Assembly (NCBI GenBank): GCA_026390435.1
Contig: JAPLFY010000039.1
Coordinates: 41,163-105,162 of the forward strand
Direction: 5' to 3'
DNA from: Pseudomonadota bacterium
GTDB lineage: Bacteria > Bdellovibrionota_B > Oligoflexia > Oligoflexales > CAIYRB01
DNA length: 64,000 nucleotides
Below the pieces are notes generated by a model. It saw only the letters and a list, made by a program, of their open reading frames with translations, did no database searches and had not been told where the DNA came from. Every line of letters begins with the position of its first letter. Positions within the stretch are counted from its first letter, which is position 1. The position numbers and the translations under genes were made by a program. Below are positions 4,939-43,677 of the stretch, piece after piece.

Positions 4939-6324
4939 TTGGTGTGGAAGTGTCTATTTCTTCTGATGTCTTTTGGGGTGACCGCAGCTGCGGCAGGTGA
5001 AGATGCACGCGATCAGGACATTTTTGGGGCGCCTTCGGCAGAGAAGGTGGTTGCACCTGAAGCGGACATGAATCAGCGTTTAATGGATACTCTGCAAATC
5101 GGAGGGCGGTTGGAGATTCGGACCGACTCCGGTCATAAAGAGGGGGTCGGCGCTGCTGGTGGGGACTTCGGCAAACTGAAGCAGGCCGATGTTTATTTTG
5201 ATTCCCGTCCAAATAAGGATTTGCGAGGCTTTTTACGTTTGCGTTTCTCCGAGGGCGGCTCGTCTGGTGGTGCACCAGCAATAACATCGGATTCTATCAA
5301 TAAATCGGATGTGTGCTCCAGTGGTTGCATTCGCTCAGATGTAGATGAGATGTGGCTGAAGTGGGATATTGCGAAAATAGTTTACGCGACTTTCGGCAAG
5401 CAGCATGTGCGGTGGGGGAGCGGTCGCTTCTGGAATCCAACCGACTTTACTTCTATTCGTGTGATCGATCCTCTGGCTTTATTCGATCGCCGATTAGGCG
5501 TAGACATGCTGAAATTGCATCTGCCTTTTGAGAAGCAGGGGTACAATCTTTATGCGATTTTGCTCTATGGTGCGGCTAAGCAAATTGACCAATTGACCGG
5601 TGCTCTTCGTGGTGAGTTTGCGTTCGGTGGGATTGGTGAGGCAGCAATTAACTTTCAGACGGCAGCCCATGCTCCAATTCGCTTTGGCCTCGATATTTCG
5701 AGCGGCTTAGGACCGGTAGATGTGCACAGTGAGTCGGCCTTGACCAAGAGGCAAAGCCAACTGCTTTATCGCGGAGGGATAGATACTACCACCGGTCAGT
5801 TACCAACTGCCTATCGGGAGCCCGACAAATGGTTTGTTCAATCTCTACTGGGCGTTGATCGCAGCTTCAAATATAACTCCGACGATGTGGCTACCGTGGG
5901 AGTGGAATATTTCTATAACCAGTTCGGCTATAATGACCGAAATTTAGAGCTGTACTCTCTGGTCACAGGGCAATCACCGACTCTTTATGGTGGTCGTCGC
6001 TATATTTCGGGCTACCTCAATCTACCGGCTCCGGGTTCGTGGGATGATACGTCATTTTTTATAACTGGACTCCGTAACTTGAGTGATGACACCAGTACCG
6101 CCCGCTTGACCGGTACTTGGAAGCTATTCAAAGACGCTGATATTCAGGCTTTTGTGGCTCAGTGTCACGGTGACTACGGTGAGTTGTGTTTTCGCATACC
6201 ATCATCATTTAGGGGCTTAGCTTCATTGCCGCAAGTGAGCCCTCAGCTGCAGCAAGCGGTCCAGGCTTTACCGACCAAGCGTACTTTGACCACGGCTGGA
6301 GCTGGTGTTGTCTTAAAGTTTTAG
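4939..6324 (+). CDS. Hypothetical outer-membrane beta-barrel-like protein
   Basis: It has a signal-peptide-like N-terminus (WKCLFLLMSFGVTAAAAGEDA), an AAGGGGA RBS just upstream, alternating-polarity segments, and a C-terminal ...GVVLKF ending in an aromatic residue, as is typical of OMPs. The start may be TTG 4939 or GTG 4942. Confidence 0.6.
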   Translation: MVWKCLFLLMSFGVTAAAAGEDARDQDIFGAPSAEKVVAPEADMNQRLMDTLQIGGRLEIRTDSGHKEGVGAAGGDFGKLKQADVYFDSRPNKDLRGFLRLRFSEGGSSGGAPAITSDSINKSDVCSSGCIRSDVDEMWLKWDIAKIVYATFGKQHVRWGSGRFWNPTDFTSIRVIDPLALFDRRLGVDMLKLHLPFEKQGYNLYAILLYGAAKQIDQLTGALRGEFAFGGIGEAAINFQTAAHAPIRFGLDISSGLGPVDVHSESALTKRQSQLLYRGGIDTTTGQLPTAYREPDKWFVQSLLGVDRSFKYNSDDVATVGVEYFYNQFGYNDRNLELYSLVTGQSPTLYGGRRYISGYLNLPAPGSWDDTSFFITGLRNLSDDTSTARLTGTWKLFKDADIQAFVAQCHGDYGELCFRIPSSFRGLASLPQVSPQLQQAVQALPTKRTLTTAGAGVVLKF

Positions 6325-6350
6325 TGCCGAGCTTTTAAGCCCTGACGTCC

Positions 6351-6400
6351 TTATTTTTATAAATTTTAATTTATTCTATAAATTTTTATAAATTTCTAAT
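6351..6400. repeat. AT-rich tract with three copies of TATAAATTT
   Basis: Read directly: TATAAATTT starts at 6358, 6377 and 6387 within an almost pure A/T 50-mer. The tract lies between the OMP-like gene and tRNA-Leu. Confidence 0.5.
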
Positions 6401-6525
6401 GAGTGCTTTTCGGTAAATGGAGAGATTTCTCTGGGGGGCTAGATCCTTCGTTGGCGAATGCCATTTCGTGTGTTACCAATTCTTCTTCGGTTCTGCTATT
6501 GAGCCCTCATGAGAGCTCGTAAATT

Positions 6526-6612
6526 GCCCGCGTGGTGAAATTGGTAGACACACAGGACTTAAAATCCTGTGCTTCCGTAAGGGGCGTGCCGGTTCGATTC
6601 CGGCCGCGGGCA
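6526..6612 (+). tRNA. tRNA-Leu (anticodon UAA), class II with long variable arm; genomically encoded CCA at 6613-6615
   Basis: A manual cloverleaf fits. The acceptor stem is GCCCGCG/CGCGGGC, the D region GGTGAAATTGGTAGACAC, and the anticodon stem CAGGA/TCCTG with loop CTTAAAA. There is a long variable arm, and the T arm is GCCGG-TTCGATT-CCGGC. Confidence 0.93.
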
Positions 6613-6700
6613 CCATCACTAGATCTAGAAGCCGCGTTGATAGAAGGCTCGATTTAGCTATCAGTAACCATAACCGACACAAGCCAACTCGACGAATTTA

Positions 6701-7162
6701 TTGCTTCGGTACTATAATCTAATCGTGGCAAATTCACTTCCAAACAGCCAAGTGCGATCACCGGCTGGATCTAGCTCCCGAAAGGGTGCGGGGTCTGGTG
6801 AGATTGGTGCGTGTTATCATTGCGAGGCTAAGTCGGGTTCAAACACATTTTGCGAAATCTGGCGCAATTGGACTTGTGCGTCGTGTGTGAATAAGCACCA
6901 TAAGGCGCATCATAAAACTTGTGTGGTCGAAGTTGAAAAGGGCAAGTTGATCGGCAAGCAGCAGCGCCTTTATTTCACCATTCTTGTGACGCGCTACGAT
7001 GGTCAGGTTGTGCCGCTGCAGTGTCGTCTCGGTGAGAAGATGGAAATGGAAGACCATTGGATGGGCACTTACATTTTTGGCAGCGGTAGTATGATTTTGG
7101 TAACGGAGTCACGCGCAGCCATCAATGAAAAAATTCTCAATGGCTTGAGATCCGTTCGATAG
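6701..7162 (+). CDS. Hypothetical protein with N-terminal CxxC...CxxC zinc-ribbon-like motif
   Basis: It contains CYHC-x17-CASC followed by the His-rich stretch KHHKAHHKTC. The stop lies 12 nt before the next gene. The start is uncertain: there is no in-frame ATG near the 5' end, and the candidates are GTG 6725 or GTG 6752. I recognise no family. Confidence 0.45.
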   Translation: MLRYYNLIVANSLPNSQVRSPAGSSSRKGAGSGEIGACYHCEAKSGSNTFCEIWRNWTCASCVNKHHKAHHKTCVVEVEKGKLIGKQQRLYFTILVTRYDGQVVPLQCRLGEKMEMEDHWMGTYIFGSGSMILVTESRAAINEKILNGLRSVR

Positions 7163-25119: not shown

Positions 25120-25330
25120 GGTGTTGTCTCCCAGGGAGTGAAGGGGCAGCCGTGCGGTTTGCGTGTGTCTGCCCACCGGACAAAGTCCGGACGCCGACTT
25201 AGCCCATCGGAGTTCATAGGTCAACTACAGCCTAAGATTGCCCAGGATTAAAGTCTTGCTTTGATAGGCTTGCGTCGATAAAAGTCCGATCAGCAAATTT
25301 TCAGTGAGAGTTGCTCTCAGGAGGCATTCG

Positions 25331-28138
25331 ATGTTCAAGTGCGCAATCAGCTGGCTGGGCCGCTTTTTGACCTACGGTTTGTTCGTAAGTCTTATAGTTA
25401 GTGCGAGGGCGAATGCTGATGAAGTGCTTAGCCAGCCTTTCGATCTCGAAGTTGACATGCTGAAGAGCGAAGGACACAGGAGCTCCATCGAGCCTCGGCT
25501 AGGCACGGTGCAGAATCTTCAGGCCGAAGCTACGGCTAGATCGGCATTGAATATCTCAGCTCGCGCAAAAGCGTTAGCGGACACAGTCGAATATCTACAA
25601 GTCGATGTTTATATCGAAAACCGTCGTGACTATCCTGTCGATGCGGTCGTTCTGAATTTTGATCAGGACGGTGGCGCAGGTCAGATCTGGGACCTGACGA
25701 CGGACGCATACAATAAACAACCTTTGGCTGCACCTTACGCATTAAAAGTCGGGCGAATTGCCGCTTACGGCGTGAAGCGCGTGATCCTTAGCGTGAAGAA
25801 GTCTCTGGCACCACACCTTCGCGGAACCATCACCCTGCAGCCGAGCTCTGGCGAAGGACAGATGACTACGGACCTCTTGGTGTCTCCAGCCAACGACGAG
25901 CTGTGGGCAGTGAGCTCGGACACGAACGAAGTAGTTGCTTATGCGCTGCCAGGAAAACAAGAGATTGCTCGCTTATCTGTTGGCGCGCAGCCGGCTGGTA
26001 TAGCCTTACAAAAGGCCCGTGACTGGATCGTCGTTAGCTCGGCGAAAGGTAATTCGCTGACGGTGATCGATCGCCGCACGAAGACCGTATTGAGTGTCCT
26101 CGGTAATAACGAGGAGTTCGGTCGTGAGCTCCGTTATGTACTCGTTTCACAAAAGTCGCCGACTATCTACGTCAGCAGCTACGTCGAGGGGACACTGTCT
26201 GAAATCAAGCTGAATGATGCGGCGCAAGTTGCTTCATCAAAGACTCTTAAGATCGGTGCTCGGCCGACAGGCATGAGCATGACCTTTGATGAGTCTCAGT
26301 TGTACATCGCCCACTTTTTGCCCCGTGGCGATATCAATCATAATGAAGCTTGGATCAGCGTCGTGACTCTGCCGAAATTTGTGGCAGAAAAAGATGCAGT
26401 GATTGAAGACCACTTCAATCCTGATAATCCAAGGATGCAGTGCCTCGCTGATTTTTATAATAACTATCCGCCGGCTAAATTAATCTACGGCAAACTCAAG
26501 GCAACTGATTTCAGTTTGGAAGGAACAGCAAGCCAACTATCCGGCGTCTTCCTCGACCCAGCGGGTCAAGTTGCCTGGGTGCCAGGTACAAGAATCACTG
26601 GTGCTTTAGTGGTACTGGAGCGCGGCCAAAATGCCGACAAATCGCTCAAGAGATTTGGTGGACTTCAGCCCGCTCAGCTCAGTGCTCCTCTCATCTTTCC
26701 TCTGGATGCTAGTAAGAAATCTGAGTTGAACAGCATCTATACGCGTGATGTCGAGATGGCGATTCCGTCGCTGAAAAATATTGTTTACTGCATGCGTCAT
26801 CCGCTTGAGATCGAATTTATCGACCGTGCTTTGCAAAGTAACGGCAAGGAGCAAACCAATCCATTTCTAGCCTACGGCGTCCCGCATGCGGGATTAACAG
26901 GGTTGGGTTTGGTTAATACCATTCGCTTCACCAAAGGTGGCCGGTTTGCCTTAATCCTGAGCCATGTTTCTGACGAGATTGCGATCTATGATGCCACCAC
27001 GATCAATCCTGCCAGTCAGTTGCATTTTCAACTGTCGGGGTCCAACCCAAAGGGCATGACCGTCTCGCCTGATGGTAAGAAGATTTACGTCTCCTATGAG
27101 AATTCTGATTTTATCTCTGAGATCGATGCCTCTGCTTACGCTCCAGAGGAGCCAAGTCGTCTGACGGCGCCTTATCAGATTCCTTATCGCTACTTCCCCA
27201 CGACCAAGGCCCTAGTGCAGCTTGGTGGAGTTGTTGGCTTCCCCCTGATTCGTAACATCGAAAAGGTGGCAGTTAAGCCAGCTCTTCAGGAAACTGCACG
27301 CCTCAAGCTTAGGTCCACGGATCCGCTCAGCCCTGAAATGCGCCGCGGCAAGACTCTATTCGCTTCAGCCAATCCAGATAAATATCCAGTGTCGATGAAT
27401 CGTCTTGGAGCATGTGCATCATGCCATCCGGACGGCGGCAACGATGGCACCAGCTGGGTCACTATGGAAGGTCCGCGCCGGACGATATCGCTCAGAGGTG
27501 GCGTTGCCGATCGCGGCTGGCTCCACTCGAGTGCAACTCATACTAATAGCCACGAGTTTGTCGAGACGATCGTCCCGGAGCGCCTAGGTGGAAAGCTGGA
27601 AAAGTCTGATCTAGACGCAATGGCTCAGTATCTCGATCACGGTATTCCAAAGCTGCAAAGCCCGCGGGTAGATGCTGTATTGGCAAAACGTGGCGAAGAA
27701 CTGTTTCAGAACAATTGTGCCAGCTGTCACCGCGGCACCGCTCACACTAGCGGTGTGAAGGCTGATGGAACGCCACGTCTCTATAATATCGGTACGGCAA
27801 ACCCTAATCACGGTGTGGCGGCAGGCCGTTTTTCCAACACTCTGATTGGCTTGGCTGATGCTAAATCGAAAGAGATTGCGGAAGCACTCATCGGCGACCG
27901 GGCTCTCGGTGGCGACGATCCGATTCAGGCAATTCTCGACTACCGGCCACGTCCCGTTCGTGATGTTGGACAGCTAAAGGCTCCGGCTTTAACAAACACA
28001 TTTGACAATGTCGTCTTCTTCCATGATGGTTCGGTCGATAATCTCAAGGGCGCTATCACCCGGATCAACGGCCTACTTGGACTCAGTCTTACAGTTGATG
28101 ATATCGATGCTCTTGAAGCGTATGTGACGACTCTTTAA
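25331..28138 (+). CDS. Secreted beta-propeller (YVTN/YncE-like repeats) fused to a di-haem cytochrome c peroxidase/MauG-like C-terminal domain
   Basis: The ATG at 25331 has an AGGAGG RBS, and a signal peptide follows. Repeated motifs of the type GAQPAGIAL...VSSAKGNSLTVID and GSNPKGMTVSPDGKKIYVS are present. There are two CxxCH motifs (CASCHPDG, CASCHRG) in a CCP-like context (GKTLFAS..., GEELFQNN..., VVFFHDGSVDNL). Confidence 0.75.
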   Translation: MFKCAISWLGRFLTYGLFVSLIVSARANADEVLSQPFDLEVDMLKSEGHRSSIEPRLGTVQNLQAEATARSALNISARAKALADTVEYLQVDVYIENRRDYPVDAVVLNFDQDGGAGQIWDLTTDAYNKQPLAAPYALKVGRIAAYGVKRVILSVKKSLAPHLRGTITLQPSSGEGQMTTDLLVSPANDELWAVSSDTNEVVAYALPGKQEIARLSVGAQPAGIALQKARDWIVVSSAKGNSLTVIDRRTKTVLSVLGNNEEFGRELRYVLVSQKSPTIYVSSYVEGTLSEIKLNDAAQVASSKTLKIGARPTGMSMTFDESQLYIAHFLPRGDINHNEAWISVVTLPKFVAEKDAVIEDHFNPDNPRMQCLADFYNNYPPAKLIYGKLKATDFSLEGTASQLSGVFLDPAGQVAWVPGTRITGALVVLERGQNADKSLKRFGGLQPAQLSAPLIFPLDASKKSELNSIYTRDVEMAIPSLKNIVYCMRHPLEIEFIDRALQSNGKEQTNPFLAYGVPHAGLTGLGLVNTIRFTKGGRFALILSHVSDEIAIYDATTINPASQLHFQLSGSNPKGMTVSPDGKKIYVSYENSDFISEIDASAYAPEEPSRLTAPYQIPYRYFPTTKALVQLGGVVGFPLIRNIEKVAVKPALQETARLKLRSTDPLSPEMRRGKTLFASANPDKYPVSMNRLGACASCHPDGGNDGTSWVTMEGPRRTISLRGGVADRGWLHSSATHTNSHEFVETIVPERLGGKLEKSDLDAMAQYLDHGIPKLQSPRVDAVLAKRGEELFQNNCASCHRGTAHTSGVKADGTPRLYNIGTANPNHGVAAGRFSNTLIGLADAKSKEIAEALIGDRALGGDDPIQAILDYRPRPVRDVGQLKAPALTNTFDNVVFFHDGSVDNLKGAITRINGLLGLSLTVDDIDALEAYVTTL

Positions 28139-30273: not shown

Positions 30274-31902
30274 TCACTCGGATACGTTGAAGCTAAGCAT
30301 CATGCCGGCATGCAGGTGCTCGGCGATGTGGCAATGAGCCATCCATTGGCCTGGATTCGCCGCCTCAAGGACGATGTCCATGGTCTCCCCGGGTGCGATG
30401 AGCGCGGAGTCTTTCCAGACCAAGTTGGAATTTGCCTGACCGTTTAGGCTAGCAATGACAAAGCGCTGACCGTGAAAGTGAATGGGGTGCTGCATTGGAT
30501 GCACCGATTTAGGGTCGTTGTAGACGCGAATTTTGACGAAATCACCGCGCTTGAATTGCCACTTGATGTGCATGTTTTCTGCCTTAGTCTTCGCATCGAT
30601 TAGCTTCCAGACTAAGTTGGTATTGTCACTCTTGCTGTTCATAGCGGCCATTTCGTCAGTCCATTCGATAGCGCGAGGCTTAGGTCCTTGTGGTTTAGCC
30701 GCGTCCTGCACCTGATGCATGTGGTGCATGTCGTGTCCAGACTCTTTGTGGGGCATGGAAAGCTTGCTGTGGTCGATAACTAGAGTGATAGTTAGTTGTT
30801 TATCGATTGGTCCCTTTAGTTTTTGCTTCACGACTTTCAAATCTGTGATCGAGAGTCCCGGGTTTCTCAGCTTGTTGAAATCGGCGATGAGTTTAGGTGC
30901 TGGGCCATTGCTAACTTCGACAGTCCCTAGTTTAACGCTGCCATCAGGCTTATTATTGACGATGTCGTAGGTCCCGGGCTTGGCATATCGCGCCTCGACG
31001 ATATAGCGCTCGGACGGAGAGATCGTTACAGCGTCGGTCCACTGCTCGTGTTCATAAAGTCCGCCGTCGCTGCCCACCAGTTTCATGCGTGCTCCAGGCA
31101 AAGCGAACTTAATTGTCCTGGTACTTGCTGAGTTAGTTAGGAAGAAGCGGAGGACTTCATCGGCCTGCGCCTGGAGGACAAAGTGATCTTGGCCATTGAT
31201 CAACATAACATCGCCATACCGTCCCATCAGCGTGTGGGTCACCCGGTCGCGGTAAAACGGCGCGGCATCTTTGCCGCTGGCGTCGTCTAAGATTAGTGCA
31301 ACTTCGCGGTTGACCGAATTATAGAAGTTGGGGTCTTTGGGGACGACCCAGAAGTTGCCGTACATGCCTAGCGCCTGGCTATAATCTTCGCGCACATGCG
31401 GGTGATACCAGTACATGCCTGCATCGGGAAACTTGAGGGTGTAGTCATAGGATCCACCTGGGGCAATCGCTGCCTTCTGACTGATTCCGACGACGCCATC
31501 GTTATGGTAGTCCAGTCGCAGGCCGTGCGGATGCAGGGTGGTCGGGATTTCCGTCTCGTTCTTCAAAGTGAGGAAAATGGTGGCGCCTTGTTTGACCTTG
31601 ATGATGGGGCCGGGGACAGTGCCGTTGTATGCGAGCCTGCGGATCCACTGACCACCAATTCTTTGTTTCACTGGTCTAGCTGTGACTATGTATTTGGCTC
31701 CGTCGCTTAATTCTTTGGTCTCCATCGGCTTTGCCTCTGGAAGGCCTTCCACGCTCGTCGGGAAGGTGCCATCAGCGGGTACAGCAGCGACGGTGGTCGC
31801 TGGGGTTGGCACCGAAGTGGTGGCGGAGGGGCTTTGTGTTAGCGTGCAGCTGGATAACATGACGATCAGAGTCAAGACGGCTGTGTCATTTGCTTTTCGC
31901 AT
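30274..31902 (-). CDS. Multicopper oxidase, probable lipoprotein
   Basis: All four Cu-site motifs are present: HPHGL, WYHPHV, HPIHFHG and HCHIAEHLHAGMM. The lipobox-like signal is LIVMLSSC. Confidence 0.88.
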   Translation of the reverse strand: MRKANDTAVLTLIVMLSSCTLTQSPSATTSVPTPATTVAAVPADGTFPTSVEGLPEAKPMETKELSDGAKYIVTARPVKQRIGGQWIRRLAYNGTVPGPIIKVKQGATIFLTLKNETEIPTTLHPHGLRLDYHNDGVVGISQKAAIAPGGSYDYTLKFPDAGMYWYHPHVREDYSQALGMYGNFWVVPKDPNFYNSVNREVALILDDASGKDAAPFYRDRVTHTLMGRYGDVMLINGQDHFVLQAQADEVLRFFLTNSASTRTIKFALPGARMKLVGSDGGLYEHEQWTDAVTISPSERYIVEARYAKPGTYDIVNNKPDGSVKLGTVEVSNGPAPKLIADFNKLRNPGLSITDLKVVKQKLKGPIDKQLTITLVIDHSKLSMPHKESGHDMHHMHQVQDAAKPQGPKPRAIEWTDEMAAMNSKSDNTNLVWKLIDAKTKAENMHIKWQFKRGDFVKIRVYNDPKSVHPMQHPIHFHGQRFVIASLNGQANSNLVWKDSALIAPGETMDIVLEAANPGQWMAHCHIAEHLHAGMMLSFNVSE

Positions 31903-35786: not shown

Positions 35787-37058
35787 ATGGCGGCGCGGTG
35801 TTACGCAATTGATTTCGGGACATCTAATTCACTTTTGGCAGCGACCGATGGCGTGCTGACGCTGCCTCCCATTGGTCTGGATCCAAGTGCCCCAGATCCG
35901 ACCGTGCTCAAGAGCGTGCTCTACACTCCGTCTGCCGGTAAATGGTATTTCGGTGCGGAAGCAGTGAGCCAATACGGCGAGCATCTCGCCGAGGGGCGTT
36001 TGTTCCGGTCGCTGAAAAAATACCTGCCGGATCCGAGCTTCTCCGGTACTCACGTGCTTAACCGTTTTTACAATTTGCCAGAGCTTATCGCCGTGTTCCT
36101 GCGTGAACTGAGAGAGCGCGCCAATAAGCACTTTGATCAAGATGTCACAGCAGTAGTGCTCGGGCGTCCGGCTGTCTTCGCCAGTGACCCTACCAAAGAC
36201 GCTCTGGCAGAGAAGCGCTTGACCAGTGCAGCGCATTTGGCAGGGTTTAAGGACGTGGCTTTCTGTCCAGAGCCAGTGGCAGCGGCTTATGAGTTTCGCC
36301 ATCAACTAGATAAACGGCGCAAGGTTCTGATTGCCGACTTTGGTGGTGGTACTTCGGACTTTACGGTGCTCAATATGGACCGCGACCGGTTTACGGACCG
36401 CGACTTGCTCGCGACCCACGGGATTCCAATTGCCGGTGATCGCTTTGACGGCGGCATCATGAAGCACATGATCGCTCCTCATTTTGGTTCAGAGATCGTT
36501 TACCGCATGCCAATGGGCAATAACGATCTGCATTTGCCGCAGCAATTGATTAATAAATTGTGTAATGCTGCCGACATCTCATTTTTATCGCGCAGCGATA
36601 TCATGCTGCTGCTTAAAGAAGCGCAGCGCTGGTCGATTACGCCGGAAAATTCTGTACGTATGGACCGCCTCTTTATACTGATTGAAGAGCATCTGGGCTA
36701 CAAACTGTTTAAGTCCATTGAGCAAAGCAAAATCGAATTATCGGCATCCGAGACCTCGCAATTTCGTTTTGATCATCCTGGAATTGTCGTCGAAGAGGAA
36801 TTGTCGGCGGCTCGGTTTAAAGAAGTCAGTGCCGACTTAGTCGCCCAGATTGTTGGGGCCCTAGACGAGACTCTGCTACGGGCCGGTGTTAAAGCTGATG
36901 AGATTGAGATTGTTTGCTGCACTGGTGGTACGGCAAAGATACCCGAGCTACGGGTCGAGCTAGAGCGTCGTTTTGGCGCCGATAAGCTGCGTCAGCATCG
37001 ACATTTTCACTCAGTGGTAGGTGGATTGGCGGAGAGAGCTGTGGCTCTCGGCCTATAG
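35787..37058 (+). CDS. Hsp70-family ATPase lacking a substrate-binding domain (YegD-like)
   Basis: Actin/Hsp70 phosphate motifs are present: AIDFGTSNSLLA and LIADFGGGTSDFTVL, plus CTGGTAKIP. At 423 aa it contains only the nucleotide-binding domain. Confidence 0.8.
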   Translation: MAARCYAIDFGTSNSLLAATDGVLTLPPIGLDPSAPDPTVLKSVLYTPSAGKWYFGAEAVSQYGEHLAEGRLFRSLKKYLPDPSFSGTHVLNRFYNLPELIAVFLRELRERANKHFDQDVTAVVLGRPAVFASDPTKDALAEKRLTSAAHLAGFKDVAFCPEPVAAAYEFRHQLDKRRKVLIADFGGGTSDFTVLNMDRDRFTDRDLLATHGIPIAGDRFDGGIMKHMIAPHFGSEIVYRMPMGNNDLHLPQQLINKLCNAADISFLSRSDIMLLLKEAQRWSITPENSVRMDRLFILIEEHLGYKLFKSIEQSKIELSASETSQFRFDHPGIVVEEELSAARFKEVSADLVAQIVGALDETLLRAGVKADEIEIVCCTGGTAKIPELRVELERRFGADKLRQHRHFHSVVGGLAERAVALGL

Positions 37059-37083
37059 TTTTTGGAGGCTAGTGCGGGTCATC

Positions 37084-37971
37084 ATGAAGTACGTTGACTG
37101 TCAAAATCAGCGCAATCTGATCGTCACTGCGGACGATTTCGGTCTTACCGACGAAATCAATCAAGGGATCGTGCTGGCCCATCAGCAAGGCATCTTGCGC
37201 TCAACAGCTTTGCTGATGAACGGCCTGGCTACAGGTGCTGCTCTCGAGCTTAGGCGCCAAAACCCTGGCCTTGAGATTGGTGCTCATCTTGGCATTGTCG
37301 AGGGCTACTCTCTGCTCGGTAAGAAGAGCACTCTGACAGATGATTTGCAGTATTTTGGCCAGGGTAGTGTGTGCCTCCACCGAGGATGGCCACAATTTAT
37401 CGCCAAATACCTAAAGGGCCAGATTGACCTGGGCGAACTCGAGGAAGAGCTCGATCTGCAGCTCGCTCGGATGCGGTCTGCAGTCGGTCCGATTGCCTTT
37501 GCAAATGGCACCCAGCATCTGCACCTGCTCCCCGGTGTACTCGATATTGTCCTGAAATTAATGAATAAATATGAGATCAAATGGCTGCGTCTGCCAGCAC
37601 TGAGCCGCACTGTGCCGGGCTCCATGCGGCGCATTCCGTATAACTGGGCGCTGCGGGCGTTAGGGTACCGGGCGCGTCGCCGCGCTGCTCGCAGCGGGAT
37701 CGGCGGGGCGAAATATTTCGCTGGGTTTGACGTTTGCGGTCGCCTTGATGCAGCTGCCGTCTGTAAGATTCTAGAAGGAATGCCGGTTGGCACTATGGAA
37801 TTGATGAGTCACCCGGGGCTTGATTGCCCTTATCTGCGTGAGAATCTACCATGGGGCTATCAGACATTTGCTTGGGCTGGAGAGCTGGCAGCATTGATCA
37901 GCCCAGCCGTTGCTGAGGTAGTAGCTCGGCGCCAGATTAATTTGATTCAGTTTAAGGATCTTACCCACTGA
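37084..37971 (+). CDS. YdjC/ChbG/HpnK-family carbohydrate deacetylase
   Basis: The N-terminal signature LIVTADDFGLTDEINQGIVLAHQQGILRSTALLMNG and a later HPG motif are present. The ATG at 37084 was chosen. The ORF-track extension to 37021 overlaps the preceding gene. Confidence 0.8.
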   Translation: MKYVDCQNQRNLIVTADDFGLTDEINQGIVLAHQQGILRSTALLMNGLATGAALELRRQNPGLEIGAHLGIVEGYSLLGKKSTLTDDLQYFGQGSVCLHRGWPQFIAKYLKGQIDLGELEEELDLQLARMRSAVGPIAFANGTQHLHLLPGVLDIVLKLMNKYEIKWLRLPALSRTVPGSMRRIPYNWALRALGYRARRRAARSGIGGAKYFAGFDVCGRLDAAAVCKILEGMPVGTMELMSHPGLDCPYLRENLPWGYQTFAWAGELAALISPAVAEVVARRQINLIQFKDLTH

Positions 37972-37976
37972 ATACT

Positions 37977-38984
37977 ATGCTGAATACTATGCAACGACCT
38001 GCTAAATTTTCCATCTCTGTGGTCATTCCTGCTTATAACGAAGCGGATTGCGTCGCAAAGGTGGCGCATGAGCTGACGCGTATTTTGTCTACTCTGACGC
38101 CAGACTTTGAAATCCTATTCATCGATGACGGCAGTAAGGACGGTACCTTTGCGCGGGTCACGGAGCTTGCTGCCAAGGACTCACGGATCAACGGCATCTG
38201 TCTGTCGCGTAACGTCGGGCACATGGCTGCACTCGCGTGCGGTCTCGATAGTGCCCGTGGTGATGTGGTGATTTGTATGGATGCTGATATGCAGCATCCA
38301 CCGGAATTGATTCCGGCTATGGTCGCGGCTTGGCGTGATGGTTACGATGTCGTGAACATGCTCCGTCGCAACACTGCCGAGACCAATGCCAAAGGCGACC
38401 TACTCTCGCGTCTATTCTATTGGACCTATAATCGCACCTCCGATGTGCAAATCATCCCGCACAGTCCTGACTTCCGTCTGCTCGATCGCCGCTGTGTAGA
38501 CGCATTGAAGTCGATGACAGAGCGGTTGAAGTTTTACCGGGGTATGGTGCCTTACATTGGCTTCCGCCAAACTTTGATGGAATTTGATTGTCCGCCGCGG
38601 TTCGCCGGTAAGCGTAGTTACACGATCAGGAAATCTCTGAAGTTGGCGTCGGACGGCATTGTGTCGTTCTCCGATGTGGGCTTGAAGTTGCCGCTCATTG
38701 TCGGTGGTTTCATCTCGTTTTTGGCAGCCATTTACATCATCGTATCGATCGTCCTTGTGGTATTAAAAATCACGCCACTTGCTCCTGGGTGGGTGTCCCT
38801 ACTTAGTTTCAACGTGCTAAGCCTCGGGCTGAATCTCACTTTTATCGGGGTTTTTGGCCTTTATATCGGCAAGATCTTTAATGAAGTGAAAAGACGGCCT
38901 CTGTATTTCGTCCAGACTGCCGTTGGTAAGCCGCTGCCGCGGCGTGCCGATACAGGTCTCCTTGAGCATCGGGGCGAGGAGTGA
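37977..38984 (+). CDS. GT2 polyprenyl-phosphate glycosyltransferase (ArnC/GtrB-like)
   Basis: VVIPAYNEADCV and FIDDGSKDGT are present, along with a DAD motif (CMDADMQHPP) and two C-terminal TM helices typical of GtrB/ArnC-type enzymes. Confidence 0.85.
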   Translation: MLNTMQRPAKFSISVVIPAYNEADCVAKVAHELTRILSTLTPDFEILFIDDGSKDGTFARVTELAAKDSRINGICLSRNVGHMAALACGLDSARGDVVICMDADMQHPPELIPAMVAAWRDGYDVVNMLRRNTAETNAKGDLLSRLFYWTYNRTSDVQIIPHSPDFRLLDRRCVDALKSMTERLKFYRGMVPYIGFRQTLMEFDCPPRFAGKRSYTIRKSLKLASDGIVSFSDVGLKLPLIVGGFISFLAAIYIIVSIVLVVLKITPLAPGWVSLLSFNVLSLGLNLTFIGVFGLYIGKIFNEVKRRPLYFVQTAVGKPLPRRADTGLLEHRGEE

Positions 38985-40408
38985 CTCTTAACTGGATTCG
39001 CCGTCACCCAAGGCTGCTGCCAAGTCTGGTGGCGCTTGCTGCTTTGGTGCTTTGCTTTTTTCAGCTAGGTGATCACGGCGTCAGACTGTGGGATGAAACG
39101 CGCCACGGCGAGTCTGCCTGGCAGATGCTCCGGCGTGGCGATTTCATTAATTACTATTTTGACGGCCTACCGGACGACTGGTTGGCTAAGCCTCCGCTAG
39201 GGGTTTGGTTAATCGCATTATCGTATAAGCTGATTGGGTTTAACGAGTGGGCTTTGCGGGCACCATCGGCACTGGCTGGGGTGGGGATAGTCATGTTCAC
39301 TTATCTTCTGGTGCGGCTCTACCACGGCCAAGTGACGGCAGCTATAACCTGCATGATCTTGCTGCTGTGCCGGGGAATTGTTGGCCAGCATGTGAGTCGT
39401 ACCGGTGATCTTGACGCCCTATTTATCGTGACTGCAATGGCGATGATTTATCTGCTGCAGCGGCACGAGAAAAAGGGTGGCGACTTACTCCTGATTCTTG
39501 CTGGTGTGTGCGGTGGCCTGTGCTTCTTCACCAAAGGCTTCATGATGGGGCTTTTTCTCCCCGGCCTAGGTTTGTATGTGCTCCTGCGTGGCCGTGCCCT
39601 GCCATTGTTGAAAAATGGCGCTTTTTGGGCAGCTTTGATGCTCTTTCTCGGGTTCATCGGTGGTTGGTACCTAGCTGTGAAAAAGCTGGGGACGCCATTC
39701 GTGAATAGTCAGTTTGGTGCTGACTCCTGGGACGTGATGGTTAATTACGACATCTTCCGACGCTTCACCGAGAAGATTGAAGGTGATACGAGTACCCCAA
39801 TGTATTTGCTGGAGGCTCTCGATATTCGCTTTGGGCCTTGGCTATATTTACTGATGCTGTCGCTGCCGTTACTGCTTTGGAAGCGCGATAATACGACCTC
39901 CTGGTGGCGCGCGGCATGGGGCAGACTCAAAGCCGATCACCTGCTGTTACTGAGTGTCTGCATGGTTGTTCCGACATGCATTTTGTTTGCGAGTTCGGCG
40001 ACTAAGTTTAACTGGTACGTAGCAATCACGACGCCATTCCTTTCTATCTTGACGCTGCAGCTATTTCACGTGAGTGCGAAACGCCGGCCTCGTCTTTGGT
40101 GGCTCTTTGGGTTGTTTACGCTAGTTGGGATTGGGGGACAGTTGCAGTACTTGCTGCGCCCCGAAGAAAGTCTGTCGCATCAGGTGATGGTGCAACTGCC
40201 GGCGGTGCATGCAGCTAAGCACATCTATGCTGAGCGGAAACCTGCGTACAACACCATACTCACACTTAAGTGGCGAGATCGTCAGGCAGAACTTGCCAGT
40301 GCTGAGGTTCTGGCCAAGCCACGCGAGAAAATTAGCTCAAAAGTCGCGCGCATTGCTGAATCTGGCGGTGGTTTCAGTTTGTTGCTGACGCCTGCTGGTG
40401 ATGATTAG
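38981..40408 (+). CDS. GT-C glycosyltransferase (ArnT/PMT family, GT39/GT83-like)
   Basis: The first-loop motif LWDETRHGESAWQML is followed by at least 10 TM helices. The GTG start overlaps the GT2 stop by 4 nt. Confidence 0.8.
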   Translation: MTLNWIRRHPRLLPSLVALAALVLCFFQLGDHGVRLWDETRHGESAWQMLRRGDFINYYFDGLPDDWLAKPPLGVWLIALSYKLIGFNEWALRAPSALAGVGIVMFTYLLVRLYHGQVTAAITCMILLLCRGIVGQHVSRTGDLDALFIVTAMAMIYLLQRHEKKGGDLLLILAGVCGGLCFFTKGFMMGLFLPGLGLYVLLRGRALPLLKNGAFWAALMLFLGFIGGWYLAVKKLGTPFVNSQFGADSWDVMVNYDIFRRFTEKIEGDTSTPMYLLEALDIRFGPWLYLLMLSLPLLLWKRDNTTSWWRAAWGRLKADHLLLLSVCMVVPTCILFASSATKFNWYVAITTPFLSILTLQLFHVSAKRRPRLWWLFGLFTLVGIGGQLQYLLRPEESLSHQVMVQLPAVHAAKHIYAERKPAYNTILTLKWRDRQAELASAEVLAKPREKISSKVARIAESGGGFSLLLTPAGDD

Positions 40409-40486: not shown

Positions 40487-40492
40487 TATAAT
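40487..40492 (+). promoter_or_regulatory. Candidate -10 box (TATAAT) placed for a leaderless transcript
   Basis: A perfect TATAAT ends 6 nt before the ATG at 40499. No Shine-Dalgarno sequence lies between them, and I found no convincing -35 element. Confidence 0.25.
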
Positions 40493-40498
40493 AATAGT

Positions 40499-40867
40499 AT
40501 GCGAAAGCTTCTCCACATCTTGATCAGTCTTTGCTTCTTCGCTGCAAACATAGCAGCGGCACTGCCTGCGTGTGATTCAGAGAAGAGCGATCTAAGTTGT
40601 GCACAGGCACACTCGGGTGGTCGTCAGGCAGATCAGGCAGATCAGGCAGATCATGACTTGCTCAGAGCTGACTGTTGTAGCTGTGATCATCCAGCCGTCT
40701 GTTTGGGCTGCTGCCACAGTCACACTTTTATGTCTCCGCGCTTTGTCGTGTCGCTAACGATGCAGGTTAAGCTCCAAATTCGTGGATCTTTCCCGGCGAA
40801 TTCCGTGATTTCTGCCCAGCCGGAAGCGCGGATCGAACGCCCGCCAATCGCAGTCACAGTAGTTTGA
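40499..40867 (+). CDS. Hypothetical secreted Cys/His-rich protein
   Basis: It has a signal-like N-terminus MRKLLHILISLCFFAANIAAALPAC, a (QAD)3 repeat, and the cluster CCSCDHPAVCLGCCHSH. I cannot assign a family confidently. Confidence 0.55.
   Translation: MRKLLHILISLCFFAANIAAALPACDSEKSDLSCAQAHSGGRQADQADQADHDLLRADCCSCDHPAVCLGCCHSHTFMSPRFVVSLTMQVKLQIRGSFPANSVISAQPEARIERPPIAVTVV
40625..40651 (+). repeat. Perfect 3 x 9-bp tandem repeat (CAGGCAGAT), in frame, encoding QADQADQAD
   Basis: Read directly from the sequence at 40625-40651. Confidence 0.9.
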
Positions 40868-40990
40868 ACTCAACGTAAAGTTTGAGTCAGAGGTGTCCTT
40901 TTATGGATGCCGGCGATGCCTAGTCTTTTGGCTGCTCGTCAACTGTGGTTCGTGCGTTTAAAAAAATTGAAAATTAATTGGGAGCATTTC

Positions 40991-41374
40991 ATGAAGAAGT
41001 TTCTTAATTGTCTGCTTATCGTATGGACATCCTTTTTCGGCCTAGTGCAAAGCTCTGCGTTTGCTGCTAGCGGTGATCGCTGCTGCGACGAAGATGGTTG
41101 CTGCGAGGGTGATTGCGAAGAAGGTAACTGCACAAATGAAAACTGCACTAACGTAAACTGTCATCATGAAAAGTGCTGTGATGCTGGTGGTTGCTGTGAA
41201 GATGGTCGCTGTGAAAATGGCGCATGCACAGAGTCTGATTGCACCAACCCAAACTGTGTCCACAGCAAGTGCTGTGACGCCGGTGGTTGCTGTGAAGATG
41301 GTCGCTGTGAAGACGGCAACTGCACAGAGTCAGACTGCACCAATGCTGATTGTCCACATGACAACAATAAGTAA
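40991..41374 (+). CDS. Hypothetical secreted, acidic, 24-cysteine three-repeat protein
   Basis: A GGGAG RBS lies 6 nt upstream of the ATG, and the signal peptide is MKKFLNCLLIVWTSFFGLVQSSAFA|AS. The 102-aa mature part has 24 Cys, 25 Asp/Glu, 6 Lys/Arg and 4 His, arranged in three units of CC-x4-CC-x3/4-C-x4-C-x4-C-x4-C. A terminator follows. Confidence 0.65.
   Translation: MKKFLNCLLIVWTSFFGLVQSSAFAASGDRCCDEDGCCEGDCEEGNCTNENCTNVNCHHEKCCDAGGCCEDGRCENGACTESDCTNPNCVHSKCCDAGGCCEDGRCEDGNCTESDCTNADCPHDNNK
41078..41362 (+). repeat. Three tandem 93/96/96-bp coding repeats
   Basis: The units are 41078-41170, 41171-41266 and 41267-41362. Units 2 and 3 differ at only 2 of their first 45 nt and at 21 of 96 nt overall (counted by hand). 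Unit 1 is more diverged. Confidence 0.9.
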
Positions 41375-41458
41375 GCTTGGGTGACTAATTAGCTTAGAGA
41401 CTTGTGATCTTTAGTTGAATTGGTGGCCCTACTCGGGCCATCTCAGCCACAGTTTTGA

Positions 41459-41506
41459 CGAGCGGCCAAGGAGGCTAGGTCTCCCTTGGGCCGCTCGCTT
41501 TATTTG
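41459..41506 (+). terminator. Rho-independent terminator for the Cys-rich gene pair
   Basis: A 13-bp stem (CGAGCGGCCAAGG / CCTTGGGCCGCTCG, with one bulged G) is followed by CTTTATTT. The opposite strand has no U-run, so the terminator is probably unidirectional. Confidence 0.6.
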
Positions 41507-43636
41507 CTATTCACTAAACGCAACTGCCGCCTCAACCTGAGACCAGAAGCGATGGTAGCGAAACTCTGGCACCGGGCCGCCATTTAGATAATTTTGCACT
41601 TTGGCGAAGTCAGGGTCGCTGCGGTATTGCGGCCGCAAGCTTAAGAAAGTCGCGGTGCTATTTGCCTCGGCGCCGCGTCCTAACTTGCCGTTAAATCCAG
41701 CAGGAATAAAAACACTGGCGTTAAAGTTGCTGTAGTCGGCTCTAGCCTCATTATTGGATACGCCTTTGTCGTCGCGGTAATGCGTCCAGGTGCGGTCAAT
41801 GATCTCGCGAGCAAGCGTCGACGCTCCCAGAGCATTCTGCTGATTACGATGCAAGGCGGTGCCTTTAGCGTAACTTAGGAGAGCTTTAGCAAGGCTGGTG
41901 GCGATCCCGATGTCCTCGTTGTAATCGACAACTGTGACATGTAGGTCGCTGTTTATCTGCTGGCTCTGCGATGACCACGAGTGCGGCTGTCCGCTCCAAG
42001 CGAGATTGCTCGGGATCTTGTAGCCGCCATCATCGGACAGCTTTACATTGCGACTGACCCAGGTGACCCAACGGTCGAGCAGCGCTTCGATGCTGCGATC
42101 GCCGCTCGCTAGGTAATAGGTCGCAACCCGCTCCATCGACCATGCCTGCCAACCAAACCAATTATTTGAATTCGGATTATGGTAGACCGGATGCTGTTCA
42201 AAGCTGAGGCCGTGAAAGGTACTCTGGCCCATTGGTGGCACGTCGTAGCGACCTTGCCAGCTGTTAGTGGCGCCACCGGCAATCGCACCCTCAGCTGATT
42301 GTAGCCACTGATAAAACTCAAGCTGACGCTGGAGACTCTGTTGCCAGTCGCGGGCGCCATTTGCTGTGATTGGTTTAAAGTCTTGGTCTGCGCTCAGCAC
42401 ATAAGCAGCAAGCGGGTTTTGGTAGCCAAAATGAGCGTGACTGCCGCCGATACGCCAAGACCATTGGCCTTGGTCTGCTGGATGTGAACCACCCCAAGAA
42501 TAATACCAACCCATCAAATAATGTGCCGAATCGTAGTCAGATCCTGCGGGACACTGTGGGCTCTGGCAGCCAATGGATTTGAAGTATTTGTCAAACATGG
42601 CATAGCGCAGGAAGTCGCCCATGCGGCTCGCCTTCGCCGCGAGGCTCTTGACCGCAGCTACGTTGCCACTGGCGCGCGCGTACTGCATAGCTAAGTAAGT
42701 CGCCTGCACAATTCGTGCATCTGCATCGGGGGCATTGGTGTAGCGCCATTGCCGTTTGTACCCGTTTGGATCAGCAGCAAATAGGCTGAGGAAGCCCTGA
42801 TCTGGTGCGCCGAATTTAAATTCGTCGATAGAGGGATGTGGAACAGTGAGGAATACTGACTCCATCGGGCCGCGCTGAAACGTATTGATATAGACAGGGT
42901 CTGTGCCGGCACCGTAGCCGTACCAGTTATTGGTATCGATCAACCAATGCATGCCGTAAATATCGCTACCGTAGGCGGCGGCAAGTTCAGCGCTGATGGG
43001 ATCTCGACCTACACTGATCCCTTGACTAATTTGCACAGGATACTGATTTGGTGTGTCTTGCTCCGGTGCGTACGTCGCCGGCGATCCTGGATTGTAGGCT
43101 GCTGATCCATACTGCAGTTTGGGGATCGCATATGTTTCCATGCGATCAAACACATAATGCAACAGGCTGTAGTCATCAGTGTAGCGACCAAAGACGGCCT
43201 CTAACCAAGCCCAGTAGCTTACCGTTTCACTGGTAGTCAGATGGCCGTAGTCTGGAGCTTCCGCGATTAAGGTCTCGGCAGAGTGGAAGGGCAGGCCAGT
43301 GGCGCTAAAGTAGCCGTTCTTAGGATCATGGAGCTGGAACCAGAGAGTGAGGAAGCGGTCGCGCGAGGGATTGTCGCTAGGCACTTTCAGGGTGCGGCTA
43401 TTGGCTGTGCGAATTTCAAATGCACCGCTTTTTGAATTTGCCAAAACATAAGGCAGCCCCGGATGCGGTGCTGCCCAGTGTTCAGTGTCCCTATCGATGC
43501 CGATCCCACCAGTGCTGATCCCGCCAGTGCCGACCTCATCGGCCGCGCGTAGCTGCGGCCCTGTGATAGCAAACATCACAGCGGCGGTAAATTTGACAAC
43601 GAGCCCCACATACGAACCTAGTCGCATCGAACCCAT
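41507..43636 (-). CDS. Glycoside hydrolase family 48, secreted, single-domain
   Basis: GH48 hallmark blocks are present: AEAPDYGHLTTSETVSYWAWLEA, GMHWLIDTNNWYGYG, YTNAPDADARIVQA and EFYQWLQSAEGAIAGGATNSW. The ATG at 43636 has an AGGAGG RBS 8 nt upstream. Confidence 0.85.
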   Translation of the reverse strand: MGSMRLGSYVGLVVKFTAAVMFAITGPQLRAADEVGTGGISTGGIGIDRDTEHWAAPHPGLPYVLANSKSGAFEIRTANSRTLKVPSDNPSRDRFLTLWFQLHDPKNGYFSATGLPFHSAETLIAEAPDYGHLTTSETVSYWAWLEAVFGRYTDDYSLLHYVFDRMETYAIPKLQYGSAAYNPGSPATYAPEQDTPNQYPVQISQGISVGRDPISAELAAAYGSDIYGMHWLIDTNNWYGYGAGTDPVYINTFQRGPMESVFLTVPHPSIDEFKFGAPDQGFLSLFAADPNGYKRQWRYTNAPDADARIVQATYLAMQYARASGNVAAVKSLAAKASRMGDFLRYAMFDKYFKSIGCQSPQCPAGSDYDSAHYLMGWYYSWGGSHPADQGQWSWRIGGSHAHFGYQNPLAAYVLSADQDFKPITANGARDWQQSLQRQLEFYQWLQSAEGAIAGGATNSWQGRYDVPPMGQSTFHGLSFEQHPVYHNPNSNNWFGWQAWSMERVATYYLASGDRSIEALLDRWVTWVSRNVKLSDDGGYKIPSNLAWSGQPHSWSSQSQQINSDLHVTVVDYNEDIGIATSLAKALLSYAKGTALHRNQQNALGASTLAREIIDRTWTHYRDDKGVSNNEARADYSNFNASVFIPAGFNGKLGRGAEANSTATFLSLRPQYRSDPDFAKVQNYLNGGPVPEFRYHRFWSQVEAAVAFSE

Positions 43637-43677
43637 AGCGAGCACCTCCTGTGCTCTTGTTTATAAACCTTTTTGCG

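Follow-up and report, generated by a model that had tools for sequence, protein, structure and literature searches.

In a 64,000-nt stretch of contig JAPLFY010000039.1 from a Pseudomonadota bacterium (referred to here as the window), we analyzed a two-gene unit in which gene 1, a small open reading frame (ORF) for a Cys/His-rich protein, precedes gene 2, which encodes an acidic protein made of repeated eight-Cys modules. The two genes form a conserved unit. The gene 2 product belongs to a protein family that is absent from Pfam, NCBIfam, and the PDB and has few members in public data. Gene 1 is a divergent relative of known metal-sensing leader ORFs, most likely CutF/CruR/CopL-like as judged from its sequence, and no certified member of any of these families. 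Taking both halves together, we consider it somewhat better than an even bet that gene 1 encodes a nascent-chain metal sensor gating the expression of a novel exported metallothionein-like protein. The coordinates, the residue counts, and the three-unit Cys ladder given in a preliminary description of this locus were all confirmed in the sequence.

Results

A conserved gene pair with a single coding frame for gene 2

A gene 1 homologue, encoded on the same strand, lies 92 to 124 nt 5' of a gene 2 homologue in five lineages, namely the window clade, L018, L019-L022, L009, and L023 (L numbers denote related contigs), pairing having been assessed wherever the available DNA was sufficient. The upstream protein shares 49% identity with the gene 1 product in L018, which comes from a metagenome-assembled genome (MAG) labeled 'Deltaproteobacteria bacterium', and 42% in L019-L022; in L009, the upstream ORF comprises only the C-terminal 65 residues, ending in YRPPI and a stop codon. 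The co-occurrence that the preliminary description had proposed to check is thus found in all five lineages. Its placement of the pair between a GT-C and a GH48 gene holds for the window clade only: MoxR, DUF58, and an FtsJ-like gene flank the pair in L018, and histidine-utilization genes and unknown exported proteins in L019. Because the neighbors are unrelated between lineages, the GT-C/GH48 adjacency is incidental. The absence of a nearby radical-SAM maturase also stands, there being no radical-SAM, MNIO, or DUF2063 gene within about 15 kb on either side (window 25-57 kb) or in the four other contexts, and no DoxX gene adjacent in any of the five.

Several ORFs overlap gene 2, and conservation of one of these had been named in advance as grounds for discarding it. 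In nine distinct 384-nt gene 2 alleles from related contigs, the third codon position of the proposed frame accounts for 47 of the 64 variable sites, and changes in this frame are synonymous in 54 cases and nonsynonymous in 18. The other frames pick up stops, with the exception of one in which 6 changes would be synonymous and 65 nonsynonymous. The proposed frame is the coding one and is under purifying selection. On the basis of this substitution pattern, we rejected a coding role for the minus-strand and +3-frame ORFs within gene 2; these ORFs are therefore by-products of a TGY-, GAN-, and GGN-rich composition. In the C-terminal half of gene 1, codon position 3 accounts for 33 of 58 variable sites.

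Gene callers often chose the wrong +3-frame ORF (67 to 75 aa; window 41166-41384), as seen in L001, L003, L005-L007, and L010, and an N-extended form of gene 2 of 152 to 155 aa is also annotated in related contigs. Both the 127-aa gene 2 protein of the window and the 155-aa extended form are absent from a collection of 15 billion proteins. The small number of known gene 2 members is partly explained by gene callers missing the correct frame.

Gene 2 encodes a modular Cys-rich protein

The gene 2 product carries a predicted Sec-type signal peptide with a positive n-region, a hydrophobic core (Kyte-Doolittle mean 2.26), and an A-x-A site (heuristic). Its mature part of 102 aa contains 24 Cys (24%), 25 Asp/Glu, 6 Lys/Arg, and 4 His and has an isoelectric point of 4.07. 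With no Phe, Trp, or Tyr and just two aliphatic residues, both Val, it has no hydrophobic core. The Cys spacings, 0,4,0,3,4,4,4, then 0,4,0,4,4,4,4 twice, define three copies of a module CC-x4-CC-x3/4-C-x4-C-x4-C-x4-C, most of which have a His after the last Cys (C-x-H). All eight module Cys are invariant in every copy, across modules and lineages. Modules 2 and 3 are 79% identical at the DNA level, including 43 of their first 45 nt, a similarity that would provide a substrate for unequal recombination. Across the family the number of modules is one, two, or three, so that the variation in repeat number suggested for checking is real; within the window clade, contigs L008 and L017 have two.

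The preliminary description had recognized no family for gene 2, and database searches agree. Gene 2 gave no match in Pfam or NCBIfam (E<=1 and E<=10), including none to DUF2282, and the mature protein matched no PDB sequence at E<=10. An exhaustive search of 1.84 billion representative proteins with a 32-residue module profile returned three proteins only, P0001, P0014, and P0015, and a word-indexed protein search with gene 2 returned P0001 only. P0014 (64 aa) and P0015 (67 aa) have one module each, and P0001, from L009, has two, located behind a His-rich N-terminal extension of 20 residues, HGHQEQHSHSHDDHEHHEND. A DNA-level scan independent of gene calling found one representative among 185,579 GTDB species (a Lake Loclat MAG). 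Six contigs from JGI metagenomes carry gene 2 and, together with the GTDB locus, all belong to the window clade.

The database entry P0001 (L009 292-783, 163 aa) reads through a TAG. According to translation table 11 the ORF ends at 669 and encodes 125 aa, a clean terminator hairpin lies 3' of this end, and the 38-residue C-terminal tail of the entry is probably an artefact of the caller's genetic code.

The predicted mature N termini ANH, SSH, and ATH place a His at position 3 in three of the five lineages, a pattern that holds only if the predicted cleavage sites are correct. Amino-terminal Cu(II)/Ni(II) sites are characterized by a His at this position. AlphaFold2 models had a mean predicted local distance difference test score of 45.9 for full gene 2 (2-row alignment) and 58.9 for one module (5-row alignment); these low-confidence models contain no helix bundle and one short low-confidence helix outside the signal peptide.

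Gene 1 encodes a predicted exported protein with an invariant Cys/His cluster and a C-terminal RPPI motif

Signal peptides had been proposed for both products, and that of gene 1 likewise is of Sec type by heuristics, with a hydrophobic core of about 18 residues (maximum 12-residue Kyte-Doolittle mean 2.5) and an end at AAA/LPAC, where the slash marks the predicted cleavage. Just after the signal there is a conserved [LIM]-P-[AGS]-C and then a second Cys, and both Cys (C25 and C34) are invariant. Among the 14 gene 1 homologues, all of which come from uncultured proteobacterial assemblies, length differences (114-139 aa) are confined to the acidic linker, the copy number and sequence of which differ in nearly every relative; the part downstream of it is constant in length. 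The Cys/His cluster that follows contains a CxxC (C68-C71) and a CxxxC (C68-C72), and C60, C62, H64, C68, C71, C72, H73, and H75 are invariant in eight sequences, down to 42% identity.

Close to the C terminus, the peptide RPPI is invariant in six lineages, and its codons vary synonymously (CGC, AGA, or CGG; CCG or CCA; CCA, CCG, CCC, or CCT; and ATC, ATA, or ATT). From the last cluster Cys to the Arg of RPP (C72-R114) the distance is constant, at 41 residues in all full-length homologues, with 40 in L009.

In the NCBIfam collection, CopL_fam matches 10 of 11 gene 1 homologues with E-values of 2e-3 to 2.3e-6 (18.6-26.8 bits), values that are significant for a distant relative. The match is collinear and spans the full length, for example residues 5-135 against positions 3-129 of the 129 in the model. 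There were weaker matches to CzcI among the homologues. Pfam assigned gene 1 and its homologues to no family, and a tblastn search of 72,556 plasmids with gene 1 (E<=10) found no match.

In contig L008, gene 1 (6001-6363) has lost 12 cluster residues through a deletion between two CC dipeptides, leaving DDCCHSH in place of DCCSCDHPAVCLGCCHSH, and gene 2 (6487-6774) is the two-module form rather than the three-module one. The L008 unit may be a decaying or differently tuned copy.

A long-range RNA helix encloses gene 2

The preliminary description, which was right about the sequence, had missed a conserved long-range RNA pairing around gene 2. An element at 40928-40948 in the spacer between the genes, TTGGCTGCTCGTCAACTGTGG, is the reverse complement of the stretch 41445-41479 in the 3' untranslated region (UTR) of gene 2. 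The core of the spacer arm (arm A), GCTCGTC-N0-4-CTGTG, is kept even where the proteins are about 40-50% identical, and this motif occurs exactly twice per complete locus, once per strand, bracketing gene 2. No other copy was present in up to 16 kb per locus and no further close copy in the 64-kb window. We rejected the spacer element as a repetitive extragenic palindromic (REP)-like repeat or mobile-element end, since it is only present as a pair around gene 2.

In an alignment of three independent lineages, a 32-pair helix has standard pairs in 93% of cells, compared with 32-45% when the partners are slid by one to three columns. Changes on both sides are found in seven pairs, and 0 of 500 shuffles reached the observed values. 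For example, CUGUGG/CCACAG is replaced by CUGUGA/UCACAG, and in L018 the outer third of the helix has a wholly different sequence with its complementarity kept. We judge the covariation support from these three lineages to be good but not overwhelming. The helix is present, and dominant, in both the minimum free energy and the centroid folds of the 651-nt gene 2 transcript. In the window clade it has five non-Watson-Crick pairs, all of them U.G on plus-strand RNA, and the duplex is more stable on the plus strand (-66.8 kcal/mol) than on the minus strand (-49.9 kcal/mol), and an RNA role is therefore favored over a DNA role. L018 lacks this strand asymmetry, its duplex having the same stability on either strand. 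The gene 2 3' UTR folds with -55.8 kcal/mol (z = -3.6). Since its arm (arm B) shares the 5' arm of the terminator, the helix and the terminator would be mutually exclusive.

At a local scale, the GGGAG Shine-Dalgarno sequence of gene 2 is predicted to pair in a hairpin with gene 2 codons 3-8. Local folds of the spacers of four lineages contained no conserved hairpin over the Shine-Dalgarno sequence.

Expression signals and feature coordinates

The GGGAG, the TATAAT box, and the hairpin with its T-tract are present where they had been described (Table 1), and the box and the terminator agree with the proposed independent transcription unit; no good -35 element was found. In each lineage examined (window clade, L018, L019, and L023) a TATA[ACG]T box is located 6-7 nt 5' of the gene 1 ATG, with no Shine-Dalgarno sequence between the two in any of them. 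The gene 1 mRNA may therefore be leaderless, as the spacing and the missing Shine-Dalgarno sequence suggest. A promoter consensus scan identified no canonical -35 element and no plus-strand sigma-70 promoter for the unit, and it missed the gene 2 terminator as well. Inspection of the spacer by eye for sigma-54 or extracytoplasmic function sigma factor-like promoters revealed none that was convincing. An Rfam search over the whole window found one tRNA only, and no known riboswitch or leader.

Table 1. Positions of the features of the two-gene unit and of corresponding elements in related contigs. Slashes in peptide sequences mark predicted signal peptide cleavage.
Feature	Contig	Position	Strand	Description	Basis
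TATAAT, -10-like box	Window	40487-40492	+	6 nt 5' of gene 1 ATG; putative promoter element	Read directly
Gene 1	Window	40499-40867	+	122 aa	ORF list and sequence
Gene 1 signal peptide	Window	40499-40561	+	MRK + LLHILISLCFFAANIAAA	Hydrophobicity and alignment; heuristic
(QAD)3 linker	Window	40625-40651	+	(CAGGCAGAT)x3, 9-nt unit; acidic, N-terminal to Cys cluster	
Gene 1 Cys/His cluster	Window	40673-40723	+	CCSCDHPAVCLGCCHSH, residues 59-75, CCSCDH-x4-C-x2-CCHSH	
RPPI motif	Window	40838-40849	+	Residues 114-117 of 122, 5 residues from C terminus; candidate ribosome-stalling motif	
Arm A	Window	40919-40950	+	Gene 1-gene 2 spacer	
GGGAG, gene 2 Shine-Dalgarno	Window	40980-40984	+	6 nt 5' of ATG	
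Gene 2	Window	40991-41374	+	127 aa	ORF list and sequence
Gene 2 signal peptide	Window	40991-41065	+	MKKFLNCLLIVWTSFFGLVQSSAFA/A; AFA/AS end	Heuristic
Gene 2 module 1	Window	41078-41170	+	RCCDEDGCCEGDCEEGNCTNENCTNVNCHHE	
Gene 2 module 2	Window	41171-41266	+	KCCDAGGCCEDGRCENGACTESDCTNPNCVHS	
Gene 2 module 3	Window	41267-41362	+	KCCDAGGCCEDGRCEDGNCTESDCTNADCPHD	
Arm B	Window	41445-41479	+	Gene 2 3' UTR; overlaps terminator 5' arm and loop	
Intrinsic terminator	Window	41459-41506 (about)	+	G+C-rich hairpin, then GCTTTATTT T-tract	
Helix arms	L018	7947-7963/8263-8281			
Helix arms	L019	7949-7967/8271-8289			
TATA[ACG]T box site	Window	40487-40501			
TATA[ACG]T box site	L018	7475-7493 (about)			
TATA[ACG]T box site	L019	7525-7542 (about)			
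TATA[ACG]T box site	L023	225-240			

Genomic neighborhood

Upstream of the unit, window 35787-40408 (+) contains a conserved four-gene block encoding an Hsp70/MreB-like ATPase, a YdjC-like deacetylase, a GT2, and a PMT_2/GT-C glycosyltransferase, which looks like a lipid-linked sugar modification pathway unrelated to the unit. On the other side, window 41507-43645 (-) encodes a GH48 glycoside hydrolase with a hydrophobic N terminus, and its synteny extends to all close relatives. Contigs L004 and L007 carry an insertion of two unrelated small genes that separates the GH48 gene from gene 2; compared with a 118-aa gene of L019 as candidates for a third partner gene, they had no similarity to it, and a third partner was rejected.

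A gene for a three-domain multicopper oxidase is located at window 30274-31902 (-), 8.6 kb upstream of the unit; no CutF-like ORF lies directly in front of it, and its upstream gap is just 258 nt. This makes it a further copper-related gene of the region, though one that does not adjoin the unit. Window 25304-28138 (+) encodes a 944-aa protein with a lactonase-type beta-propeller and a C-terminal cytochrome c domain.

Discussion

We propose that the unit could serve metal homeostasis under posttranscriptional control, as modules of the CutF/CruR/CopL type do, and that its effector is of a new kind. Gene 1 would be a small exported leader ORF, the Cys/His cluster of which is exposed in the periplasm during translation through SecYEG. 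With the cluster fixed 41 residues before RPPI, metal binding, most likely of copper, or failed disulfides may alter the time for which the ribosome dwells on RPP, and through structured RNA in the 123-nt spacer this dwell time would set how strongly gene 2 of the same mRNA is expressed. The gene 2 product, predicted to be Sec-exported and with one to three modules, would be an extracytoplasmic high-capacity binder of metal through thiolates and His, acting as a sponge or redox sink. The helix of about 32 bp that joins the 5' and 3' UTRs and encloses the gene 2 ORF probably governs how the mRNA is processed or how stable it is (for example, as an RNase III site or end clamp), or else it competes with the terminator. 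Copper is most likely the metal that is sensed and bound, and Zn or Cd is possible given the CzcI-like matches. Control could operate in either direction, as induction by excess metal (as for CutF) or as repression (as for CruR).

For CutF of Rhodobacter capsulatus, encoded in cutFOG, a periplasmic CxxxC has been described that binds copper while the C-terminal proline motif is still in the ribosome (PMC9973294). With the pause prolonged, the stem that occludes the downstream gene's ribosome-binding site is melted (PMC9973294; bioRxiv 10.1101/2025.02.05.636593), and disulfides between two N-proximal Cys of CutF and the motif Cys have been proposed for the copper-free state (bioRxiv 10.1101/2025.02.05.636593). 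CutF-like ORFs with Cys motifs typically precede copper-homeostasis genes, and both CopL and CzcI have been linked to the CutF/CruR group of DUF2946-like upstream ORFs (PMC9973294). Gene 1 resembles CutF in being a small, predicted Sec-exported ORF that heads an operon in front of an exported effector, in having two N-proximal Cys in addition to a Cys metal motif, and in combining a structured spacer with a proline motif a few residues from the C terminus and about 40-45 residues from the Cys motif. By contrast, gene 1 has RPP instead of PPP, a far richer Cys/His cluster, and no Pfam match to DUF2946. Its spacer of 123 nt contains a long-range helix, whereas the CutF stem shielding the Shine-Dalgarno sequence was demonstrated next to the stop codon, and the effector is a Cys-rich small protein and not a multicopper oxidase.

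CruR (Bp2923) of Bordetella pertussis has a CXXC and a C-terminal RAPP that are 45 residues apart (45 +/- 2 in the CruR family) and governs Rho-dependent termination in a 162-nt spacer (PMC9426467). Gene 1 shares with CruR the position as a CXXC-containing upstream ORF, a C-terminal arrest-like R-(A)-P-P motif at a family-constant distance, a long intergenic region (162 nt for CruR versus 123 nt here), and posttranscriptional regulation, which is established for CruR and would apply to the present unit. In CruR, unlike here, the motif is RAPP at a spacing of 45 residues, and the target of Rho-dependent termination is a TonB-dependent transporter. Copper relieves the arrest in CruR. CopL of Xanthomonas and Stenotrophomonas (NF033807 CopL_fam) is the sole curated family with a match to gene 1, and that match extends along the whole protein. 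It is also a small Cys/His-rich ORF upstream of a copper-resistance gene and acts in cis, although the downstream gene here is not copA or copB.

In published work, leader ORFs of this kind were selected as having fewer than 150 aa, no domain, an export signal, a CxxC or CxxxC, a PP within the last 15 residues, and a next gene on the same strand within 1000 nt (PMC9973294, PMC9426467). Gene 1 has all of these features: the size, the lack of a Pfam domain, the export signal (heuristic), both CxxC and CxxxC, the PP, and the downstream gene. As judged from its sequence, gene 1 likely works like CutF/CopL.

Several observations weigh against our proposal. On the side of gene 1, the spacing is constant but 3-4 residues shorter (about 41 residues, range 40-42) than that of CruR, the RPP motif is neither RAPP nor PPP, there is no DUF2946 match in Pfam at E<=10, the CopL_fam scores are under the NCBI curated cut-off of 40 bits, and L018 and P0012 lack a CopL_fam match. 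No other metal-resistance gene adjoins the unit. On the side of the RNA, L009 is without the long-range helix. The stop codon precedes the first hairpin of the spacer, which begins about 20 nt past a ribosome paused on PP, and arm A is located about 50 nt farther downstream. With this layout, a direct melting of a Shine-Dalgarno-shielding stem in the manner of CutF is not evident. On the side of gene 2, an even number of eight Cys per module fits a disulfide-knotted fold equally well, and the low-confidence AlphaFold2 models favor neither a metal-bound nor a disulfide fold. Thiols exported to the oxidizing periplasm also tend to form disulfides.

We put the chance that the gene 2 product binds metal slightly above even, because of its metallothionein-like composition, the placement of its His residues, the CutF-like context, and a variation in module number of the kind known from high-capacity metal binders. 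An exported metal buffer was among the ideas of the preliminary description and is the one favored by the new evidence. With about 24% Cys, no aromatics, no hydrophobic core, and variable tandem modules, gene 2 resembles metallothioneins (SmtA/BmtA and modular fungal Cu-metallothioneins). Metallothionein-like proteins are placed in the cytoplasm, since the periplasm oxidizes thiols. Gene 2 differs from metallothioneins in its signal peptide, its strong acidity, and a CC-x4-CC/C-x4-C ladder that is unlike their CxC/CxxC patterns and matches no profile. With a signal peptide and no profile match, it does not fit the SmtA/BmtA family, which is cytoplasmic and has a Zn-finger-like fold with Cys and His. 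Csp1, which like gene 2 is exported and Cys-rich, is a high-capacity Cu(I) store (PMC5171941 for the family). However, Csp1 is a Tat-exported four-helix bundle with a Cys-lined core, and gene 2 has a Sec-type signal with no twin arginine and no predicted bundle.

The main alternative is that the gene 2 product is a secreted mini-protein knotted by disulfides, whose function is structural, adhesive, ice- or mineral-binding, or toxin-like, with four disulfides per module and no physiological metal; gene 1 may still regulate it. The even number of Cys per module, the Sec signal, and the lack of a hydrophobic core are all typical of such proteins, variation in module copy number is common in surface proteins, and the C-T-x-x-x-C ladder of gene 2 is reminiscent of Cys/Thr-rich beta-helical repeat proteins. 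Yet gene 2 is tightly coupled to a CopL/CutF-like leader ORF in five lineages, and the placement of His also weighs against this reading: most modules have one behind their last Cys, one homologue has a His-rich tract, and three lineages have a His at position 3 of the predicted mature N terminus. Gene 2 also has no similarity to a solved Cys-rich fold, and AlphaFold2 yielded no confident disulfide scaffold. We consider this alternative unlikely, though it is the strongest of those weighed here.

A second alternative concerns gene 1, which the preliminary description had suggested to be a partner, chaperone, or metal-delivery protein. In this form, gene 1 would not be a leader acting in cis; its product would be a stable protein, periplasmic or lipid-anchored, that serves the gene 2 product as metallochaperone or redox partner. 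The two genes are always together, the mature gene 1 product has eight Cys in addition to His, and the [LIM]-P-[AGS]-C after the hydrophobic segment could be a relaxed lipobox. Relatives of the CzcI type are thought to be periplasmic metal-sensing regulators (PMC9973294). Neither CutF nor CopL acts in trans, and CutF is degraded after export (PMC9973294). Conservation in gene 1 is strongest in features that matter to a nascent chain, namely the length of the spacer and the RPPI peptide, whereas the length of the linker is free. Given the fixed spacer, the retention of RPPI as a peptide, and C25 and C34, a nascent-chain sensor fits better than a stable protein. With its export signal, Cys cluster, fixed spacer, and RPP, gene 1 is less likely to be a partner protein than a cis leader ORF, and we regard the former as improbable.

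A slightly less probable alternative is that gene 2 encodes a Sec-exported precursor of a ribosomally synthesized and posttranslationally modified peptide (RiPP) of the bufferin/oxazolin kind, in which an MNIO encoded elsewhere converts Cys to thiooxazoles and the product chelates copper. The precursors of bufferins and oxazolins (EGKCG repeat) and the 'CxxxxC' precursors have Sec signals, repeated Cys motifs in variable repeat numbers, and a role in copper protection (PMC12452194, PMC11626156). Precursors of the bufferin/oxazolin type are located immediately 5' of MNIO (DUF692) and DUF2063 genes (PMC12452194, PMC11626156). Gene 2 shares the Sec signal and the Cys repeats of varying number, features that are not family-specific, and its E-x-G-x-C units loosely resemble EGKCG. 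However, no MNIO or DUF2063 gene occurs within about 15 kb in the window or in the four other contexts, no DoxX gene is adjacent, neither a family signature nor a DUF2282-like Pfam match was found, and gene 1 is the sole constant companion of gene 2. The case for a RiPP is weaker than that for a disulfide-knotted mini-protein. Finally, that the inverted elements around gene 2 act as DNA, being inverted repeats of an invertible or once-mobile segment, is very improbable: 25-35 nt inverted repeats do bracket a promoterless gene and the L018 duplex is as stable on the minus strand as on the plus strand, but the orientation is the same in all of the approximately 20 assembled loci, gene 2 never occurs without gene 1, the five U.G mismatches of the window-clade plus transcript would be C.A on the other strand, and no recombinase gene is nearby.

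In conclusion, the regulatory half of the unit, gene 1, represents in divergent form a type of system described only recently, and the effector half, gene 2, is a new family. A more specific version of our proposal remains tentative, and we consider it doubtful in full: gene 2 would found a new Sec-exported modular eight-Cys class of metallothionein-like proteins, an extracytoplasmic thiolate sponge for copper or a different soft metal, gated by a divergent CutF/CruR-type sensor, with the UTR helix competing with the terminator, instead of a local Shine-Dalgarno stem, as the regulated element. Nascent-chain metal sensors of the DUF2946 kind were worked out only in 2021-2025, and the genes known to follow them encode oxidases, efflux pumps, chaperones, and TonB receptors. 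Among the neighbor classes listed for CutF-like and CruR-like genes, there is no Sec-exported, thiol-rich metallothionein-like effector (PMC9973294, PMC9426467). The scarcity of gene 2 proteins in databases also calls for caution in annotation, as a codon composition that opens several frames leads callers to choose wrongly and renders this protein nearly invisible. The helix joining the two UTRs provides a clean, compact, and testable case of long-range mRNA structure in bacteria. If our proposal is true, the locus adds a different effector to those controlled by nascent-chain metal sensors, namely an exported, thiol-rich, metallothionein-like protein. If gene 2 binds metal, it would be another extracytoplasmic copper buffer, one without the enzymatic Cys modification used by bufferins.

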